NCBI GenBank assembly: GCA_951406725.2
Contig: OX597823.1
Location: 15,190,001-15,254,000 of the forward strand
Direction: 5' to 3'
Origin: Octopus vulgaris
Taxonomy: Eukaryota
Length of the DNA: 64,000 bases
The notes beneath the pieces were generated by a model, which saw only the letters and a program-made list of their open reading frames with translations, ran no database searches and was not told the DNA's origin. The translations under genes were made by a program, and so were the position numbers. Positions 14,010 through 61,876 of this stretch are shown one piece after another. Positions within the stretch are counted from its first letter, which is position 1. Each line of letters starts with the position of its first letter.

Positions 14010-14370
<361 letters not shown>

Positions 14371-22070: not shown

Positions 22071-22491
22071 AAGGGTAAAGACCCCCTTCGGTCATGAATG
22101 ACCATGGGATTGCACCTAGAAAGTTACCCTCCTAGACACAAGTCCGGGCAAGGTTGTTTATGGAAGACCAGCAGTCGCCCATGCATACCAGCCTTCCCTC
22201 TCCACGCCACTGATGTTATCCAAGGGAAAGACAAAGGTCGATACAGCTTGGCAGCAGTGACGTCGCAACTCATTTCTACAGCTGAGTGAACTGGAGCAAC
22301 GTGAAATAAAGTGCCTTGCTCAAGAACACAACACGCAGCCCGGTCCGGGATTCGAGCTCACAACCTCACGATCGTAAGCTCGACGCTCTAACCACTGAGC
22401 CATGCGCCTATGCATATATACATACATACATATATGATATATACATAATATATATATAATTAAAATAAGCAACAAGGATATCCAGAGGTAA

Positions 22492-22578
22492 TGCAGTACG
22501 ACCGTTTCATGCAACTCCATTTAATTGAACAATGCAATCATTACATCAATTTAAAAAGCACACCAATCTTCAGCTGCA
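22492..22578 (-). ncRNA. Hammerhead motif with long stem II
   Basis: Minus strand reads TGCAG-CTGAAGA-(~58-nt imperfect hairpin)-GAAA-CGGTCG-TA|CTGCA. A related decayed copy is at 34550-34634 (+). Confidence 0.6.
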
Positions 22579-23915: not shown

Positions 23916-24060
23916 GCAATGGCTATTCTGTTACACTATTTCCTTATTGCGTCCGCCATGTGGATAACTGTAGAAGCTCTACATATTTGCCAAGCTTTGA
24001 TTACTACATTTAGTGCATGCCAGAGATCATTTGTGATGAAGAGTTCAATTTCCGCTTGGG
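23916..24060 (+). CDS. aGPCR exon I (TM3, start of TM4)
   Basis: gttgtag|..|gtatgt, phase 0 to 1. AMAILLHYFLIASAMWITVEALHICQAL..SAW. Confidence 0.94.
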
Positions 24061-24110
24061 GTATGTATAACCGTTGCCCATTTATCTTTCTGTGGCTCGC
24101 ATTTACTCAA

Positions 24111-24197
<87 letters not shown>

Positions 24198-24396
24198 TAT
24201 ATGTATATATATATATATGTGTGTGTGTGTGTATATATATATATATACATATATATAAGTTCAGAAAAATTTAGATTCAAATGAATATGGTACTTAAGTT
24301 AGATGCACCAGAATTTTGTATGGTGTTATCCATATAAATCCATGGGGTGATTATAATTAAAATAAGCAACAAGAATAATTCTTGTTGCTTATTTTG

Positions 24397-24448
<52 letters not shown>

Positions 24449-26849: not shown

Positions 26850-27114
26850 AAAGATTAAAATATTTATATATACCAATTATGGACTGAACACGAAAAGTGG
26901 ACAGTCAACATGCTAGATATAGACGTCAAATCAATGATTTGAGAACATAATCTTTCGTGGAGAATGGCGATTTGACGTCTATATCTAGCATGTTGACTGT
27001 CCACTTTTCGTGTTCAGTCCTTAATTGGTATATATAAATATTATAATCTTCGGATTCTTTTTTTTATATGCTAGACCACTGGTTTTAATTGATAAATATC
27101 AATTTCTACCCTTA

Positions 27115-27123
<9 letters not shown>
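26850..27123 (+). mobile_element. Truncated copy of the 45341-46532 family with an inverted 5' arm, in aGPCR intron J-K
   Basis: GGACTGAACACGAAAAGTGGACAGTCAACATGCTAGATATAGACGTCAAATC is followed by its reverse complement, and the copy ends in (TA)n. Confidence 0.85.
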
Positions 27124-27174
<51 letters not shown>

Positions 27175-27837: not shown

Positions 27838-28058
27838 ATTATACATTATATTATACATAAAACAAAAATTTCAATATCTGACTCCCTTTTCACTTTTTTT
27901 AATTAATTTCTATAAGATTCATCTCACGAAATCATTCTATTAAGTAAAAACCGAAATTAACTTAAAAGATTTAAATAATTAAAAACATGTCCATCTCTGA
28001 TAATTACCGTAAGCATCTGCCATAATTTCCTGTTCGAAATATCTTTCTATTTTTCTAG

Positions 28059-28453
28059 CTGCTGGTTATCCGAGATACCCTTTTCCGTTGCTTTCCTGAT
28101 TCCCATGGGACTTATTCTTCTCATTAGTCTCATCCTATTTCTTCTCATTATCGGACGCCTTTTCTCAATGAAAAAGGAGAAGCAATGTGAACGCAAAACA
28201 AGAAAATTTCGTCTTTTTGGTATCGTTAATGTGTTTTTCCTGTTTGGTGCTTCGTGGGCTTTAGCATACTATATCTTCTTTGGTGGAGCGGCCACCGTGT
28301 TTATATATATCTGTGCAATCTCCCATGCATTTCAAGGACTGTTCATTTTCATATACTATTGCGTGTGTGATAAAAATGCTCGAAGTGTTATCTGCTCGAA
28401 TTCATGTAATAAAAAGAAATATGTATTGAATAAAAATTCCCAGAACAACTCAG
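28059..28453 (+). CDS. aGPCR exon K (TM5-TM7, helix 8)
   Basis: tttctag|..|gtaagt, phase 2 to 1. CWLSEIPFSVAFLIPMGLILL...FFLFGASWALAY...HAFQGLFIFIYYCV. Confidence 0.95.
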
Positions 28454-28481
28454 GTAAGTGCAAATTCTACTTTCTTACTAT

Positions 28482-29035
28482 GGTTAATATCTAGATCCGC
28501 ACCCGGTGGGAAAAATGAGATCCGCACCCGGTGGGAAAAATGGAAACGAAAATGTGTAACAGTTGTAAGGCATCGTATATTGAAGGAATATGACGAAAAA
28601 AAAGCGCGCTGACAAACGGGGGGGGAGGGGGCTCGGAAAATTGCCTACGATTTAAAGAAAAATTTACCATCAATTTTCACCATTGTGTTTCTGATTCGCG
28701 ACCCCATGTCGAATTTATCGATTTTTTCAGAACTGGGGGAACTTTTCAAAATTTTCGCTGCGTTAGTTTTGAATTATGACATTGGGCTATGTGTGTGAAA
28801 TGCGTTTAAACACCTGTTACACATATTTTTTTCCATTTTTGCCTCTACGGTTGATCCTGGGAATTTCCCGAGCCCCCCCCCCCCCCCCCCCCGCCCCCCG
28901 TTTGTCAGCGCGCTTTTTTCCTGTCTTATTCCGTCAATATACGATGCCTTACAACTGTTACACATTTTCGTTTCCATTTTTCCCACCGGGTGCGGATCTC
29001 ATTTTTCCCACCGGGTGCGGATCTAGATATTAACC
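28482..29035. mobile_element. Foldback MITE with long TIRs (MULE- or hAT-like)
   Basis: ~150-bp TIRs starting GGTTAATATCTAGATCCGCACCCGGTGGG, with an 8-bp TSD CTTACTAT at 28474-28481 and 29036-29043. Confidence 0.9.
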
Positions 29036-31694: not shown

Positions 31695-31749
<55 letters not shown>

Positions 31750-31910
31750 AGTAGTTGAATGAATTATCTTATTGTGGATAATTCGAATTAACCGATACCT
31801 GGGTAGCAAATTCACATCAGAAAAAACACGGTTGCAATTAGGAATATGCAGCCTTCGAAACATATGTCGAAAATAAAGGAATTTTGTTAATTCGTCGTTC
31901 AACTCCATTC

Positions 31911-31993
<83 letters not shown>

Positions 31994-34301: not shown

Positions 34302-34722
34302 TGTATGTATGTATGTATGTATATATATATATATTAAAACTGTTGTAATACTTACAACATTTAATAAAATGATGTAGCGTGAAACGATCGTACCAAATTA
34401 CCGAAGTTATTCTTGTTGCTTATTTTGAGTATATATATATATTCTTGCTGAACTAGTGGCAACATGAAATTATTTCATCTTCTTGCTCTGTAAAAATATT
34501 TAAGGAAAATTATATTAATATATTTCGTCTGTTAAAAATCCATATTTCTTGCAGCTGAAGATAGCGGTGTATTTAAATTGATGTAATGATTACATTGTTC
34601 AGTTAAATGGAGCCGCTTGAAACGGTTTACTGCATTACTGCTTGCCATTCTGATACTTAGTTTGATTATGTGTGTGTGTGTGTGTGTCTGTGTGTGTGTG
34701 TGTGTGTCTGTGTGTGTGTGTA

Positions 34723-35189: not shown

Positions 35190-38100
35190 TCTTGTAATGT
35201 CGAGTCCAGGCTAATGTTGAGTCCAAATGCCTTGCAAGAAGTAGAAATACGATTCATAAGTATTTTCATGCCATCCACTGTATGAGTGACTAAGTCACAG
35301 TCATCTGCATAAAGAAGGTCATGAATAAGAGACTGGAAAACTTAAATTGGCAGCAAATCGGCGCAGATTAAAGAAGCAGCTAGAAGATCGATACTTGACA
35401 TATATTCCCAGAGAGCTAAGCTTAGCAAAAGCAGCAGCAAAGTACAAGGAAAAGGGAGTTGGTGCAAGGATGTCACACTGCTTGACACTATTCTGTACAA
35501 GAATGGGTCCCGCTATGCCACCACCAACATTGACCCAAGCCTCCATGCCATCATGAAAGGATTTAATTATAGATACAAAATTATCCGGACATCTACGTTT
35601 GCCAAGTATTTTCCATTGCAAGGCCCTATTCACAGCATCAAATACCTTTGTTAAATCAATGAATACCTGGACAAGATCCATATTCTGCTCATAGCACTTC
35701 TCCTGCATCTGTCTTGCCGTGAAAATTATATCCATTGTTCTTCTACCGGATCGGAAAGCGCATTGAGATTCAGATAGGACATCATTTACGAGACACCCAT
35801 TCAAGCGAGTAAGAAGAATATTTGCCAGAACCTTGCCAGCAGCTGATAGTAGAGCAACACCTCTGTAGTTACCATATGTTGTTCTAGCTCCTTTTCCTTT
35901 ATAGAGAGGAAGAATAATTGCATCTTTCCAGTCCTTAGGCATTGCACCATCCCTCCAGACTGCACTAATAAGTTCATGAAGAGACTGTATGATGTAATCA
36001 CCACCAAATCACAAGACTTCAGCACAAATTCCACCCTTTTCAGGTGCCCTACCAAGATTCAATTCACTTAATGATGTTATTACCTCATCTGTTGGGTCAT
36101 CCACAATTGACTCATGGTTTAGGAGTTCAGAGAAGTGTTCAATCCCGCGACCTGTGATTTCTGTTGATTTAGTAAACAGAGTAGAAGACTCCTTAGAAAG
36201 CAAAAGGTCTGATGCGGAGCTCTTAGGTCCATAAATTTGCTTCATAAGATGGTAAAGTCTCTTGCTGTCATTTGCCTCAGCAGCAGCCTGAACATCGCGA
36301 GCAGGATCCTCCCGCCAAATGTTCCGAACCTTCCTGAGAGATCGCTATAGTAGTGATTTTACACTGCTATAGTGGGCAAGTGCTAGATTTCGCTGCACAG
36401 CTGAAAGTCTTCTGTGCAGCAATATATTGTAGGCATGGCGCTTTACAACCAGTAGTCGTTGAACTTCAGCATCATTTTCATCAAACCAGTCTCTATGTCT
36501 GGCAGTAGCATATCCTAGTGTTTCAGCAGCACATTGAAGAACCTGGACTCGAAAATCTTTCCATGCTGCAGTATTTTCAATGCTGGACAAGTGAGTCTAA
36601 AGCTGTTTCCTCAACACAGCATCATATATCTTGTGGACATTCAGATGCCGAGGAACGCCGACTGGCCCTCTTCTCTCTTTCACTTTAATCATCATCCGGT
36701 ACTTTGCTCGCTCGCACCAGACTGTGGTCTGTCCAGCATTCCGATCCATGAAAGGGCTTGATATTACAAATGTCATAGATGACACGCTTGCGGATGATGA
36801 CATAATCCATGCCAAATTTTAGAGCTTGGATGCATCCACGTTGTCGTGTGATCACCTTTGTGCATAAAATGAGCGCTTGCGATGTAAAGTCCGTGATCAT
36901 CGCAAAGCACAAGCAGCATCAGACCATTGCTGTTCATTTTCCCTACACCAAAACGTCAGAATTGGAGATTTTCATAAGTATGACTCAGCTGGGTATAAAA
37001 AATAGTTTTATCTTCATCAAAGCTAGTCAAAGTAGGTGCATCGGCACTTAGAGTAGTAAACCGCCCACCGTTCAAGTGCAATCGTGGGGTCATTAGACGT
37101 TCATTTAAGGGAAGGGGAAGCTCTTCCAACTTCTTAAGGATATTTGATCGAACTGCAAAGCCAATACCAGCCTCTCTGTGCTCCTCCTTCTGCCTCCCCT
37201 TCCCAAAAAGATGCATTCACCTCCTACTTCCTCAAGCTGACTATCACCTTCTATACGAGTCTCTGAAAGTGCAGTTATATCAATGTTATAGCGGTTCATC
37301 TCGCGAGCAACAAGTGCAGTGCGTCTTTCAGGCCTACAATCACTCTTGTTATCTAACAGAGTGCGCACATTCCAACATGAAATGTTCAAGTTCCATTGAG
37401 GATTTTGTAAATAAATGTCTTTTTGATTTAGAGCGCAGGCTGGACATCCGTCTGTCGCGCTAAACTGACCAGATATAGATAACAGGCAATTTTTGGTTCA
37501 CCTTTTCTAGAACTTCCTCGGCCTTCGGTGAGCAGTGCCCTCTCCAAATGGAGCTGCTCAGACACCCATGCAACAACCGAATTCTACCGCTGTCTTGGGC
37601 GACAAGGAGAGGATTTCATATCTAGCATGGGCCGCCTACTTGCAGGTCACTGACTACATGCTTCCAACCCGTTAGGTCTGCATGCTTCACCACCTTCCCA
37701 TCGCCGCAGGACTTCTGAATAAAAAAAATATATATATACTAAAAGTAAATAAACATATAAATATATACTAAAAATAAAGATACATCTATACTGAAGATAA
37801 AATAAATATATATAGGGGGAAAAAGCAGCACATACCGAGCAGAGATCAACAATGCCTGTGCAGAATTTTAGGTTCAATAAGGCTTACATAACACGTCATA
37901 GACCTTCTCCATTTTATTGACATTATCCAGGGACAAGCCAGAGCAAGATGTCTGGTGTCAATATGAGTCGCAGGGTCAGGGATGTGGGAGCTCCATGAGC
38001 TCTAGCACAAGCAAAGATTCCCCAAATCACCAATGCCATTCACAGCATATCTGGTTTTATATCAGAGGAACCTTCTCCTAGAGACATGCTTCAAAAGACG

Positions 38101-41270: not shown

Positions 41271-42275
41271 TATATATATATATATGCATATATATATACC
41301 TAATGTGGAGGCGCAATGGCCCAGTGGTTAGGGCAGCGGACTCGCGGTCGTAGGATCGCGGTTTCGTTTCCCAGACCGGGCGTTGTGAGTGTTTATTGAG
41401 CGAAAACACCGAAAGCTCTACGAGACACCGGCAGGGGATGGTGGTGATCCCTGCTGTACTCTTTCGCCACAACTTTCTCTCACTCTTTCTTCTGTTGGCC
41501 TGCTCGCTTAGCCAGCGGGGTGGCGTCATTTGAAGGCTAAAACAATGCGAAGCGCATTCTGACCAGTGATGTGTAGCAGCATCTGATAGCCTGGTCGGTC
41601 ACGTGACGTAATATATACCTAGTTACATAACTTTTTAATCCTAACTTGCGTTTAACTTTATAACTGCGTTTCTCATGAACTCATTTCATTTTCTCTACGA
41701 AAAACTATACTGAAGTATTTTGACCTAATTTGAAAATATCTGTTGTTCAATATTATGTCTTGATTTAATCTTTATATCAACAGCTGTTTCTTTGAACTAT
41801 ATTATTTTTTTTTCATGTATTTCTACATATTTAATTTTTTTTATTTACTATAGCTGATTTCTCTCCTATCTCTTCCTGTCTTTTGTTAACATTAACGATC
41901 ATCAATTCGTTAAAATTAGATCCAGCACCTTAATTGATGTGAAACAGAATATATTCATTTTTGATAACCATACTAAGCTAATTTTATCAAGTATTGGTCT
42001 TCCACACATTGTATAAATATCAATGTTCCTTCTTGAGCCATGCCAGGCTCGTAAGGACCAGTATCCCGGTTTCAGTGGCGTAGAAATTCCCCACCTGGAC
42101 AGGACGTCGGCCCGTCGCAGGATTACTCCTTTTTGCCAGCTGAGTGGACTGGAGCAACGTGAAAATGAAATGTTTTGTTCAAGAACACAACGCGTCGCCC
42201 GGTCCAGGAATCGAAACCACAACCTTATGATCAGGAGTTCAACACCCAAACCACTAAGCCATGCGTCTCCACTTG

Positions 42276-42828: not shown

Positions 42829-43674
42829 CATAATTAAATCTCAGAACGAGATTGAAACAGTAATCGCTCGATAATGTAAAGTATAGAAGCCATCTTATCA
42901 TGGCTAACCACATGATAAGGTGGGGAATTTCTACGCCACTGAAACCGGGATACTGGTCCTTACGAGCCTGGCATGGCTCAAGAAGGAACATTGATATTTA
43001 TACAATGTGTGGAAGACCAATACTTGATAAAATTAGCTTAGTATGGTTGTCAAAAATGAATATATTCTGTTTCACATCAATTAAGGTGCTGGATCTAATT
43101 TTAACGAATTGATGATCGTTAATGTTAACAAAAGACAGGAAGAGATAGGAGAGAAATCAGCTATAGTAAATAAAAAAAATTAAATATGTAGAAATACATA
43201 AAAAATAATATAGTTCAAAGAAACAGCTGTTGATATAAAGATTAAATCAAGACATAATATTGAACAACAGATATTTTCAAATTAGGTCAAAATACTTCAG
43301 TATAGTTTTTCGTAGAGAAAATGAAATGAGTTCATGAGAAACACATTGTGGTTAGCCATGATAAGATGGCCTCTATACTTTATATTTATATATATATATA
43401 TATGTATATGAAGAGAAAGTTTTATATGTATATTTAGACGTGAAGCTTTGGTGTAAACATGATGTTCTGGTGATCTGTTGAACTAGCTTTCATTTTTTGC
43501 ACTGACTTTTAAATATAAAATTGCATTTCATAAATCATAGCATGCATAAACATAATTTATTATACACTGAATTATTATTACATGGTGAAGGCTGTGGAAC
43601 GGCTGTAACCCTAAGGATGACAAATGGTTAAATATATTCACTTCTCATACCTCATGACTTTTTAGGGTTTATAT

Positions 43675-44890: not shown

Positions 44891-45269
44891 TTTTTAACCA
44901 CACTCATAATACTTACCTAGTTTTCTCCAATTAATTTTCTTATAATTTTAGCAATTTTTACTCACTTTTTCTTTAATTCAATGATTTTTCCACATTTTGT
45001 TAGATTGGTACCATTGAAAATTGCGTTTTCTCTCTTATCTTTTTCGGTGGACTTGAATGGTTGGTTTAGTATTTTTGTCGAAATTGTCGAACATACCATA
45101 TATGTATATATGTATGTGGCTGTACGGTAAGTAGCTCGCTTACCAACCACATGGTTCCGGGTTGAATCCCACTGCGTGGTACCTTGGGCGAGTGTTTTCT
45201 ACTATAGCTTCGGACCGACCAAAGCCTTGTGAGTGGATTTGGTAGACGGAAACTGAAAAAAGCCCGTCG

Positions 45270-45345
<76 letters not shown>

Positions 45346-45496
45346 AATCAAGGACTGAACACGAAAAGTGGACAGTCAACATGCTAGATATAGACGTCAA
45401 ATCGCCATTCTCCACAAAAAGTCTATGTTCTCAGATCAAATTCAACACAAAACCAAAGCAATAAACAAGTGAAAAATATACGAAATAAATATTTAC

Positions 45497-45562
45497 CCAT
45501 GTACTAAATTTAGTTTCGGTTGTTATTTTCCGCCAGGAAAAGTGCAACCATCATCAGCATGG
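45497..45562 (-). ncRNA. Type-I hammerhead ribozyme motif, second (inverted) copy
   Basis: Reverse complement of 46252-46317, with one difference in the stem II loop. Confidence 0.85.
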
Positions 45563-46251
45563 TCCCATATAAAATGCAATTTGCTATACTAAATGCCAAC
45601 ACGATACCGAAATATCGCGTGCATGGAGTACGGCCTATTACATTTGAAATATACATTTCAAATGTCTCTACTTTTGGCGCGATGAGACCCGAGAAAACTA
45701 GCCTGCAGCTAATAGTTAGCAGCAGTTTATTTATCGGTTAGAGAACAAATATTTATATAAAATTAAAATTTAGGGTAAAAATTGATATTTATCAATTAGA
45801 ACCAGTGGTCTAGCATATTAAAGAAAGAATCCGAAGATTAAAATATTTATATATACCAATTAAGGACTGAACACGAAAAGTGGACAGTCAACATGCTAGA
45901 TATAGACGTCAAATCGCCATTCTCCACAAAAAGTCTATGTTCTCAGATCAAACTCAACACAAAACCAAATATAAATATTTTAATCTTCGGATTCTTTCTT
46001 TAATATGCTAGACCACTGGTTCTAATTGATAAATATCAATTTTTACCCTAAATTTGAATTTTATATAAATATTTGTTCTCTAACCGATAAATTAACTGCT
46101 GCTAACTATTAGCTAGTTTTCTCGGGTCTCATCGCGCCAAAAGTAGAGACATTTGAAATATATATTTCAAATGTAATAGGCCGTACTCCATGCACGCGAT
46201 ATTTCGGTATCGTGATGGCATTTAGTATAGCAAATTGCATTTTATATGGGA

Positions 46252-46317
46252 CCATGCTGATGATGGTTGCACTTTTCCTTGCGGAAAATAACAACCGAAA
46301 CTAAATTTAGTACATGG
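46252..46317 (+). ncRNA. Type-I hammerhead ribozyme motif, intact core
   Basis: CCATG-CTGATGA-T-GGTTG..(TTTTCC/GGAAAA hairpin)..CAACC-GAAA-CTAAATTTAG-TA|CATGG. Stems I, II and III all pair and the triplet is GUA, so cleavage is predicted after 46312. Confidence 0.85.
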
Positions 46318-46523
46318 GTAAATATTTATTTCGTATATTTTTCACTTGTTTATTGCTTTGGTTTTGTGTTGAGTTTGATCTGAGAACATAGACTTTTTGT
46401 GGAGAATGGCGATTTGACGTCTATATCTAGCATGTTGACTGTCCACTTTTCGTGTTCAGTCCTTAATTGGTATATATAAATATTTTAATCTTCGGATTCT
46501 TTCTTTAATATGCTAGACCACTG

Positions 46524-46597
<74 letters not shown>

Positions 46598-47559
46598 TAT
46601 ATATATATGTATGTATGTATATGTATATACATATACATATATATGTATATGTATGTATGTGTGTTTGTTTATGTATCTGTTTGTCTCCCCAACATCGCTT
46701 GACAACCGATGCTTGTGTGTTTACGTTCCCGTAACCTAGCCGTGCGGAAAAATAGACCGATAGAATAAGTACTAGGCTTAAAAAGAATGTCCTAGGGTCG
46801 ATTTGCTCGACTAAAGGCGGTGCTCCAGCATGGTCGCAGTCATATATATATATATATATATATATATATTCTTTCTTCCTATCAACCCTTTCGCGCTTAT
46901 TCGTTCATTCCCCTCTTCGTTCTTTCATTCCCCATCTGGAACATTTCCCTGCCTTCTCTTCTTGCTCACTTTCCCTCCTCTTTTCACTTTACTGTGTCCT
47001 TGTCTTTTGTTTTTCTCGCTCCTCGTTAATTCTTCTTTCCTTCTGCCGCTACCTCTCTCTCTTCTCTCCCCACGTGACCGGTGTTCGGCCAAGCCTGATC
47101 TTTATTTCGTCGTCCGTGCAACATCTATATTCTTCCCTGTTCCTGTGAAATCTTGTATCACTGCCGTGAGGCTTTATTTCCACACACGCCAGATTAATTC
47201 AATTCGTCCTTAGTCCAAAAACACCTGTTGTTATGTTCTGCTATTTGTATTTGTGTAACATTCTCTGTTTTTGTTCTGTCCTTATTTTCGTATACATTCG
47301 CTGCTTTCTCCCAAGGAATCTAATGCTCTTAGCTTAGTTTTTCCTTGGGGCTCGCCAGATTGGAGCAATCTCGAGTATAACCGGCCGAAATTGCAAAGAT
47401 AATCTGGAACTCGACTGATGAAAGAAAACTCTGAATGGCCCGTCCTTGTTTTCTTTGTATCGTCTCTCTGGATGTTTTGTAGTCCCTTTTTTGTATCACC
47501 TAACTCTCTGGATGTTTTGCGTTGTTATCCCATTTTGTATTATATATATATATATATAT

Positions 47560-60736: not shown

Positions 60737-61876
<1,140 letters not shown>

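Follow-up and report, generated by a model that had tools for sequence, protein, structure and literature searches.

A probable non-LTR retrozyme of Octopus vulgaris: a non-coding, hammerhead-bearing repeat with the insertion footprint of Penelope-like elements

The window analysed here, a stretch of 64,000 nt from the genome of Octopus vulgaris, contains two inverted, non-coding arms in a (TA)n tract, each with an intact type I hammerhead (Table 1). This arrangement, reported in a first-pass annotation of the window, is confirmed by sequence comparison. The inverted segments 45341-45852 and 46473-45969 are 97.3% identical, and the overlapping units of the two arms (512 and 505 nt) are separated by nine differences, counted as events and including a 7-nt gap. 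Each arm is indeed slightly longer than one unit (~1.2 and ~1.1), but the 512 and 505 nt earlier assigned to the arms are unit lengths and the arms themselves are longer (45969 to 45344 and 45970 to 46532). The insertion splits a host repeat of which intact copies occur elsewhere in the same window, and since the two flanks are the halves of one such repeat, a pre-existing TA tract was hit. The end of the right arm at 46532 lies in a shortened tail, which is atypical and an exception to the rule of two fixed 3' end sites (E1 and E2) that applies to the family.

Table 1. Features of the insertion and of a related short copy, in window coordinates.
Feature	Position	Strand	Remarks
Short head-to-head copy, sister subfamily	26851..27133		minus arm 26851-26932, just past E1; plus arm 26935-27123, to E2
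Host SINE-like repeat, left half	45100..45272	+	85-92% to 2705-2859, 60857-61037 and others, which run on into the right half
(TA)n target, left side	45270..45343	n/a	
Left arm, ~1.2 units	45344..45969	-	5' end 45969 (truncation); 3' end at fixed site E1, then (TA)n
Predicted type I hammerhead core, left arm	45497..45562	-	predicted cut between 45502 and 45501
Right arm, ~1.1 units (505-nt unit, 7-nt deletion)	45970..46532	+	stops ~55 nt into tail
Tail, ~100 nt, between fixed end sites E1 and E2	45970..46072	+	E2 at ~46062-46072
Predicted type I hammerhead with extended stem I	46244..46325	+	stem I with internal loop GGGA/GUAA; one additional U precedes the long stem II; stem III palindromic
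Internal copy of fixed end site E1	46464..46476	+	~160 nt downstream of predicted cut
(TA)n target, right side	46532..46658	n/a	
Host repeat, right half	46655..46845	+	

The third copy noticed earlier is real, but it does not end at an arbitrary TA-rich point of the unit: it is itself built head-to-head, with its arms ending just past E1 and at E2. It belongs to another subfamily (93-95% identity) and lacks a hammerhead. The window further holds an exon of a secretin-family 7TM receptor (27979-28491, plus strand; PF00002, E 1e-9) and a possible earlier exon without a Pfam match (23916-24281, plus strand), which would place the short copy in an intron. Other repeats in the window are a 317-nt inverted duplication (41780-42096 and 42918-43230, 98%) that flanks SINE-like repeats and microsatellites and whose sequence occurs nowhere else in the window, a MITE-like element (28482-29035) whose 150-nt terminal inverted repeats hold a 25-nt tandem repeat, and a LINE reverse transcriptase (RT) fragment (35322-36008, minus strand).

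The plus-strand hammerhead is predicted to consist of CCAUG (46252-46256), CUGAUGA (46257-46263), one extra U and stem II GGUUG/CAACC, followed by GAAA (46297-46300), stem III ACUA-AAUU-UAGU, the GUA triplet (46310-46312) and CAUGG (46313-46317), with the cut expected after 46312. An unpaired base before stem II has been described for hammerheads of Penelope-like elements (PLEs; PMC4209133). The hammerhead is the minimum-energy fold for 46240-46330 and 46250-46320, not for 46245-46325, and a structure-descriptor search of the 64-kb window matched only the two arm hammerheads. Screening with the Rfam hammerhead models, as the first-pass annotation had proposed, detected no hammerhead in 45345-46530 at E<=10, where four weak unrelated matches were returned; across the whole window the matches listed (150 of 198) were all microsatellite-driven or unrelated. 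An abundant, covarying hammerhead family thus escapes the Rfam models.

Covariation was scored on 19 copies picked across subfamilies, down to ~60% unit identity. The four helices (outer and inner stem I, stem II, stem III) are paired in 97.1% of cells, and 12 of the 17 hammerhead pairs show two-sided changes. None of 500 shuffles reached the observed values and slid controls gave 21-44%, a comparison to be read with the caveat that kinship alone can beat shuffles and that the structure was drawn from the very sequences scored. Stem II reads GGUUG/CAACC in the window's subfamily versus GGCUG/CAGCC in the sister subfamily. Stem III and its loop are palindromic or almost so in most subfamilies, so that cleavage as a dimer would be possible. 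The hammerhead is conserved as a structure in this family, and self-cleavage is predicted from sequence.

The family comprises thousands of copies. Searches covered the animal's own genome assembly (2.8 Gb, 227 contigs): the unit gave at least 127 matches from the 40 candidates scored out of 1,317, while exact patterns for the 3' half of the hammerhead and for the tail motif matched 163 and 2,344 times, respectively, with no match for the reversed-pattern controls. At site E1, 653 copies end into (TA)n and 977 read through, again with reversed-pattern controls at zero. Full units in the fetched loci are 61-98% identical to that of the window and 505-535 nt long, with a period of 505-512 nt in young subfamilies, and they form arrays of up to five units per arm. 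Unit GC is 0.33. The longest stop-free run in a five-unit array is 71 aa, which makes the repeat non-coding, and LTR-type flanks were not seen at the mapped loci. As to a Pol III promoter, the unit gave no B box and one loose A-box match, inside the hammerhead; a tRNA-derived SINE was rejected on the missing B box and on 5' ends that are scattered instead of forming a fixed 5' head. One locus (L040) proved to be a chance 17-mer and not a family member. Almost identical insertions whose flanks are also the same lie between a few kb and 50 kb from each other (L014/L015, L183/L184 and L081) and represent local segmental duplications or assembly duplicates.

Other hammerhead repeats were met along the way. 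A (TA)n-flanked family, H, is present in the window (31746-31919) and at L048, L291 and L303. Family B (L113-L130, e.g. L113:1250-1670; 1,655 candidates) is likewise (TA)n-flanked, with a compact hammerhead, inversions and a ~85-nt tail, and its first end resembles the E2 motif of the unit. A ~400-nt tandem unit with a hammerhead (L087:3750-4420, minus strand) is weakly similar to the retrozyme in the tail region (E 1e-4). Yet another hammerhead family, G, lies at L072:6020-6520 (minus strand).

Mapping of copy ends, another step proposed in the first-pass annotation, was run on 144 loci with a profile of 102 natural units, and it bears out a non-coding hammerhead repeat placed in (TA)n with PLE-type inversions. 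Left out of the arm tallies were duplicates (L015, L131, L184), L040, L088-L090 and short antisense hits from the unit's internal hairpin. The 3' ends lie at E1 or E2 in 222 of 240 arms, in bins that make up 9% of the model. The sample is biased in that similarity guided the choice of the full-length sets and a motif within the tail that of the C1 set, and E1 is also the profile edge. E1 is located ~160 nt past the predicted cut and E2 ~100 nt further 3'. A TA-type microsatellite adjoins 209 of 225 such ends versus 16% of random positions. Other TATATA runs occur in the unit but do not serve as ends, contrary to the notion that copies stop at arbitrary TA-rich points. The 5' ends are scattered, as in ordinary 5' truncation.

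The two sites are also distributed between arms in a regular way. Among 80 head-to-head pairs, 69 combine E1 with E2, three have E1 twice and none has E2 twice. Where loci had been chosen without the tail motif, mixed pairs account for 22 of the 24 that were classed (P=2e-5 against one half), and single arms end at E1 in all 13 cases. Both sites end in TA-like letters, which could pair with the target. Arm-arm junctions mostly show overlaps of 0-10 nt or short inserts, as expected if two truncated cDNAs get joined. In a test of fold-back as a general origin of the inversions, the starts of the two arms lay at most 12 nt apart in 12 of 33 short pairs (4.2 expected) and in two of 28 long pairs (1.9 expected). 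Twin priming in the manner of L1 was considered, as the right arm in the window starts where the left one ends, and was rejected because this rule fails at other loci. Craig et al. (2021, PMC8557442) list as PLE hallmarks truncated 5' ends, partial tandems, an inverted copy that is itself 5'-truncated, and a tail on one side. The protein of the PLE Poseidon begins reverse transcription at two positions within the RNA, which delimit the tail, and it extends both strands of the DNA (PMC11167929). The two fixed ends and their E1+E2 pairing in the octopus repeat are this PLE tail signature.

Inverted repeats in (TA)n pose difficulties for assembly, and the Rfam models give the hammerhead no score, which could be taken to mean that the structure is an assembly artefact or a passive satellite with a chance hammerhead-like motif. 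Such a view is hardly credible given 80 head-to-head pairs that follow a fixed E1+E2 rule at unrelated loci, window arms that differ by nine events within an interrupted host repeat, and the covariation of the hammerhead.

Around E1, one potential helix (a) is paired in 169 of 176 cells; a second (b), which crosses it, is paired in 116 of 132. All changes are one-sided, and helix b is broken twice in the window's subfamily. These pairings possibly form a pseudoknot.

Which RNA serves as template is a separate question. The "circularly permuted" ends on which a circle had originally been proposed do not support it, as the 3' ends are fixed at two sites and only the 5' ends vary. Nevertheless, a circle may reasonably be proposed on other grounds, namely read-through of the cut, the arrays and shared private variants. 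The predicted cut is read through in 110 of 223 arms, with two cuts passed in 19 and three cuts in three. In the genome-order sample, 23 of 114 arms pass the cut and two stop within 4 nt of it, while 89 do not extend far enough to reach the cut and are thus uninformative on a circle. A pile-up of 5' ends at the predicted cut was not seen among the mapped arms. As arms run through the cut without such a pile-up, doubly cut linear monomers would not be the usual template.

Variants that are private, i.e. confined to one locus among the copies compared, are common to units of both arms at L002 (4/4), L033, L212, L257 (4/4) and L260, which argues that both arms of these insertions derive from one template lineage. 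At other sites a variant is shared by part of the array only (L001 2/5, L002 3/4, L256 2/3), which fits later conversion or duplication, and no private variant across all units was found in L001, L003, L007, L010, L012, L019, L255, L259 or the window arms. Most differences within arrays are singletons, as expected for units that were identical at insertion. Predicted circular folds of three natural monomers are more stable than 30 shuffles each (z -4.7, -5.1 and -6.6), and stem II of the hammerhead is missing in two of the three. Four contig sets from runs presumed to be RNA were compared with L012. In X1 and X3, two contigs each show 12-13 loose letters that start at or one base past the predicted cleavage product (2943). 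One X2 contig crosses the predicted cut, and the summed depth in X1 is higher after it; as contigs cannot show RNA ends and the depth has no DNA control, these observations count neither for nor against cleavage.

A circular template is a probable reading of the read-through, the arrays and the shared private variants, all of which would also fit uncleaved homogeneous multimers. Alternatively, a PLE-dependent passenger could be copied from a linear template, as uncleaved read-through multimers of tandem source loci or by template jumping, with arrays kept by later unequal crossover and a hammerhead that only trims or terminates transcripts. Uncleaved RNA is the main substrate of the Poseidon PLE in vitro, where cleavage is dispensable (PMC11167929), and local tandem amplification is favoured in a 2026 preprint (bioRxiv 10.64898/2026.07.22.740005); variants common to only part of the arrays and the many genome-order arms too short to reach the cut (89 of 114) are compatible with this as well. 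Yet 5' truncation should erode linear arrays in each generation, whereas arms of up to five units recur in several subfamilies, within-array differences are mostly singletons and the hammerhead has been kept by covariation. We consider a linear template unlikely on balance, and a circle the better supported choice.

The enzyme that moves the repeat is, with high probability, a PLE, and candidates were sought among the Hydra and Neptune elements of the same genome. A search for the GIY-YIG nuclease, with 150 of 6,136 candidates scored, revealed a young PLE family with intact 781-aa RT-EN frames, which we take to be Neptune-type from its DKG and zinc-finger motifs. In young copies of this type (L071-L080), the 781-aa frame is preceded and overlapped by another ORF of up to 479 aa, and the hammerhead is minimal, with the U3-A8 core variant described in PMC4209133. 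The family inserts into (TA)n and has two ends, but these are unlike those of the unit, and its tails measure 33-37 nt (8 rows).

Coding elements with RWK, DKT, CxCX5C, CxxC and CxH motifs were reached via another hammerhead family at retrozyme loci, and these motifs are diagnostic of the Hydra clade (Craig et al., PMC8557442). In a search for the Hydra nuclease, 150 of 19,408 candidates were scored. Hydra elements also have (TA)n targets, and their tails, 79-126 nt in 27 rows that include some loci more than once, bracket the ~100 nt of the retrozyme, while their hammerhead cut lies 36-38 nt before E1 versus ~160 nt in the retrozyme. One near-complete Hydra ORF (L291:2548-5391, minus strand) is open over 947 aa; its RT and nuclease are separated by a long asparagine-rich linker, and it gave no Pfam match at E<=1. 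Short, partly inverted copies of Hydra-clade 3' ends in (TA)n, termed family E, occur in the window at 14126-14370, 34331-34433, 24204-24402 and 22455-22554; the first is head-to-head, with E1 and a ~100-nt tail.

The retrozyme is present in three of 70 Hydra loci, joined at L308 and not joined at L309 and L317. At L308, an old retrozyme arm that ends at E1 is joined head-to-head, without a microsatellite in between, to a Hydra ORF that is 5'-truncated, cut off mid-ORF, and ends at its own tail. With the retrozyme at E1 and Hydra at its tail, this chimera obeys the E1+E2 rule, although a deletion between neighbours could mimic it. A Hydra RT fragment also adjoins the retrozyme at L153, which is old and ambiguous. 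L026, L148, L220, L309 and L317 were rejected as chimeras, a microsatellite separating PLE from retrozyme or the match being a mere flank match. Separately, L303 and L291 each hold a fragment of a Hydra ORF to which an arm of type H is joined head-to-head, which suggests that Hydra forms chimeras with a second hammerhead RNA.

Based on this comparison, a Hydra-clade element is the probable partner. Movement by another PLE clade, Neptune or Naiad, seems improbable. The young Neptune-type family also inserts into (TA)n, shows the same arrangement of two ends and retains numerous intact ORFs, and octopus Naiads likewise favour (TA)n. The Neptune tails are short, however, and no ends are shared, for which reasons Neptune was rejected as partner; a joined retrozyme arm was found in none of the 50 GIY-YIG-selected stretches (partly overlapping), and a Neptune-like fragment lies in the flank of five of 148 family loci, joined in none. 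Cephalopod Naiads, for their part, are described as long-inactivated remnants (Craig et al., PMC8557442).

Similarity of the unit to sampled Hydra or Neptune ends was not found in 70 Hydra and 50 GIY-YIG-selected stretches, drawn from the part of the candidates that was scored. With only 150 of 19,408 Hydra candidates scored, the copies might still be solo or tandem pseudo-LTRs of a coding PLE family outside this sample, all the more since the similar-looking family E proved to be the 3' end of a coding Hydra element and Xenopus retrozymes are homologous to pseudo-LTRs (bioRxiv 10.64898/2026.07.22.740005). This is very improbable considering that the upstream neighbour is a unit, an inverted unit or a microsatellite, that arrays reach five units, and that no PLE ORF end was found upstream of the unit in 152 loci with unit hits. 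Constant attachment to a coding PLE, which the first-pass annotation had named as the finding that would speak against a retrozyme, is thus not what these loci display.

The ~510-nt repeat is almost certainly a mobile, non-autonomous hammerhead element. As a whole, we put a probability of about 0.6 on its being a non-LTR retrozyme that likely forms a circle and is likely copied in trans by a Hydra-clade PLE. Tandem copies would be transcribed by read-through or on their own, no promoter having been found, and the hammerhead, its structure kept by covariation, is predicted to cleave after GUA into unit-length pieces that may be ligated into a circle, by analogy with the retrozymes of coral, mussel and axolotl. 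The GIY-YIG nuclease of the PLE would then nick (TA)n, and its RT would start inside the RNA at E1 or E2, the sites at which the copies are seen to end. A single start would give a 5'-truncated copy ending at E1. Two starts, one per target strand, would give two cDNAs joined at their truncated ends, with E1 and E2 outermost as observed, the order of events being conjectural. An RT circling the template would produce the tandem arrays.

Perhaps the hammerhead RNA circle is a parasite of the Hydra PLE in a stricter sense, with a dimer that nicks both (TA)n strands and starts cDNAs at E1 and E2, rolls tandem arrays in one event and co-carries Hydra mRNA, giving rise to chimeras. The pairings around E1 would then act as a telomerase-RNA-like template-positioning domain for a telomerase-related RT, without homology to the partner. 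We offer this extended scheme as tentative, with the odds against it.

The octopus family probably joins the metazoan non-LTR retrozymes, a class that is already in print together with its proposed dependence on PLEs (PMC7229834; bioRxiv 10.64898/2026.07.22.740005). The class was defined, and circles were shown in coral, mussel and axolotl, by Cervera & de la Pena (2020, PMC7229834; also PMC7761336), where PLEs are named "a strong candidate" for mobilisation (PMC7229834). The octopus family shares with it tandem non-coding repeats whose units each bear a single canonical type I hammerhead, a low GC content (33% here), a strongly self-paired predicted circle and an apparent lack of LTR, PBS and PPT, but its units measure 505-535 nt as opposed to 170-400 nt (PMC7229834). 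In the portion compared, PMC7229834 does not describe the strict preference for (TA)n, the pair of fixed 3' ends or the head-to-head inversions of the octopus family, and while circular RNA was demonstrated for the coral, mussel and axolotl retrozymes (PMC7229834), the octopus circle is a prediction.

The July 2026 preprint bases its case for PLE-dependent retrozymes on vertebrate data, namely co-occurrence and homology to pseudo-LTRs, and reports that one of nine Xenopus retrozyme dimers cleaved in vitro and eight did not (bioRxiv 10.64898/2026.07.22.740005). Both analyses arrive at a dependence on PLEs and its units of 51-972 bp span the octopus unit length, but the octopus link consists of an insertion footprint and a chimera, with no pseudo-LTR homology found. 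The words octopus, cephalopod, mollus- and tail have no occurrence in its main text. Neither this family, its footprint evidence, the Hydra link nor cephalopod retrozymes were found described in the literature, Repbase, Dfam and subscription journals lying outside that search; six short unit motifs were not found in the supplement of Craig et al., where cut long runs and line breaks can hide matches.

Like the octopus family, Hydra-clade PLEs insert into (TA)n, bear a canonical hammerhead, form tandem and inverted structures with 5' truncation, and have a tail on one side (PMC8557442); those of this genome also share tails of ~100 nt and a palindromic stem III before GUA. Unlike them, the octopus unit encodes nothing and has no similarity to the sampled Hydra ends. 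The published PLE tail is 30-40 bp long versus ~100 nt in the octopus family, and the hammerhead listed for Hydra-1_Obim differs in sequence from that of the unit (both PMC8557442). MRC1 and other non-autonomous Chlamys PLEs are passengers with multicopy head-to-tail insertions as well, but their 3' ends resemble those of autonomous partners and most Chlamys elements lack canonical hammerheads (PMC8557442). A biochemical parallel is Poseidon_Ac, with two internal RT starts defining a tail, nicking and extension of both strands, AT-rich targets and a predicted dimer (Frangieh et al. 2024, PMC11167929). Poseidon_Ac, in contrast, is autonomous, with start sites that are close together and stated to be non-homologous to the target (PMC11167929), whereas the octopus sites lie ~100 nt apart in a non-coding passenger and have TA-like ends that could pair with the target. 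What is in print so far comprises co-occurrence, pseudo-LTR homology and one PLE in vitro, and the enzyme of the retrozymes and the origin of PLE tails, tandems and inversions have stood as open questions. To these the octopus family adds insertion footprints in hundreds of young copies, with one arm from each start site, and it points to a candidate partner clade of which this genome encodes a near-complete ORF; a two-site footprint made in trans, combined with such a candidate, renders the question of mobilisation testable in vitro.
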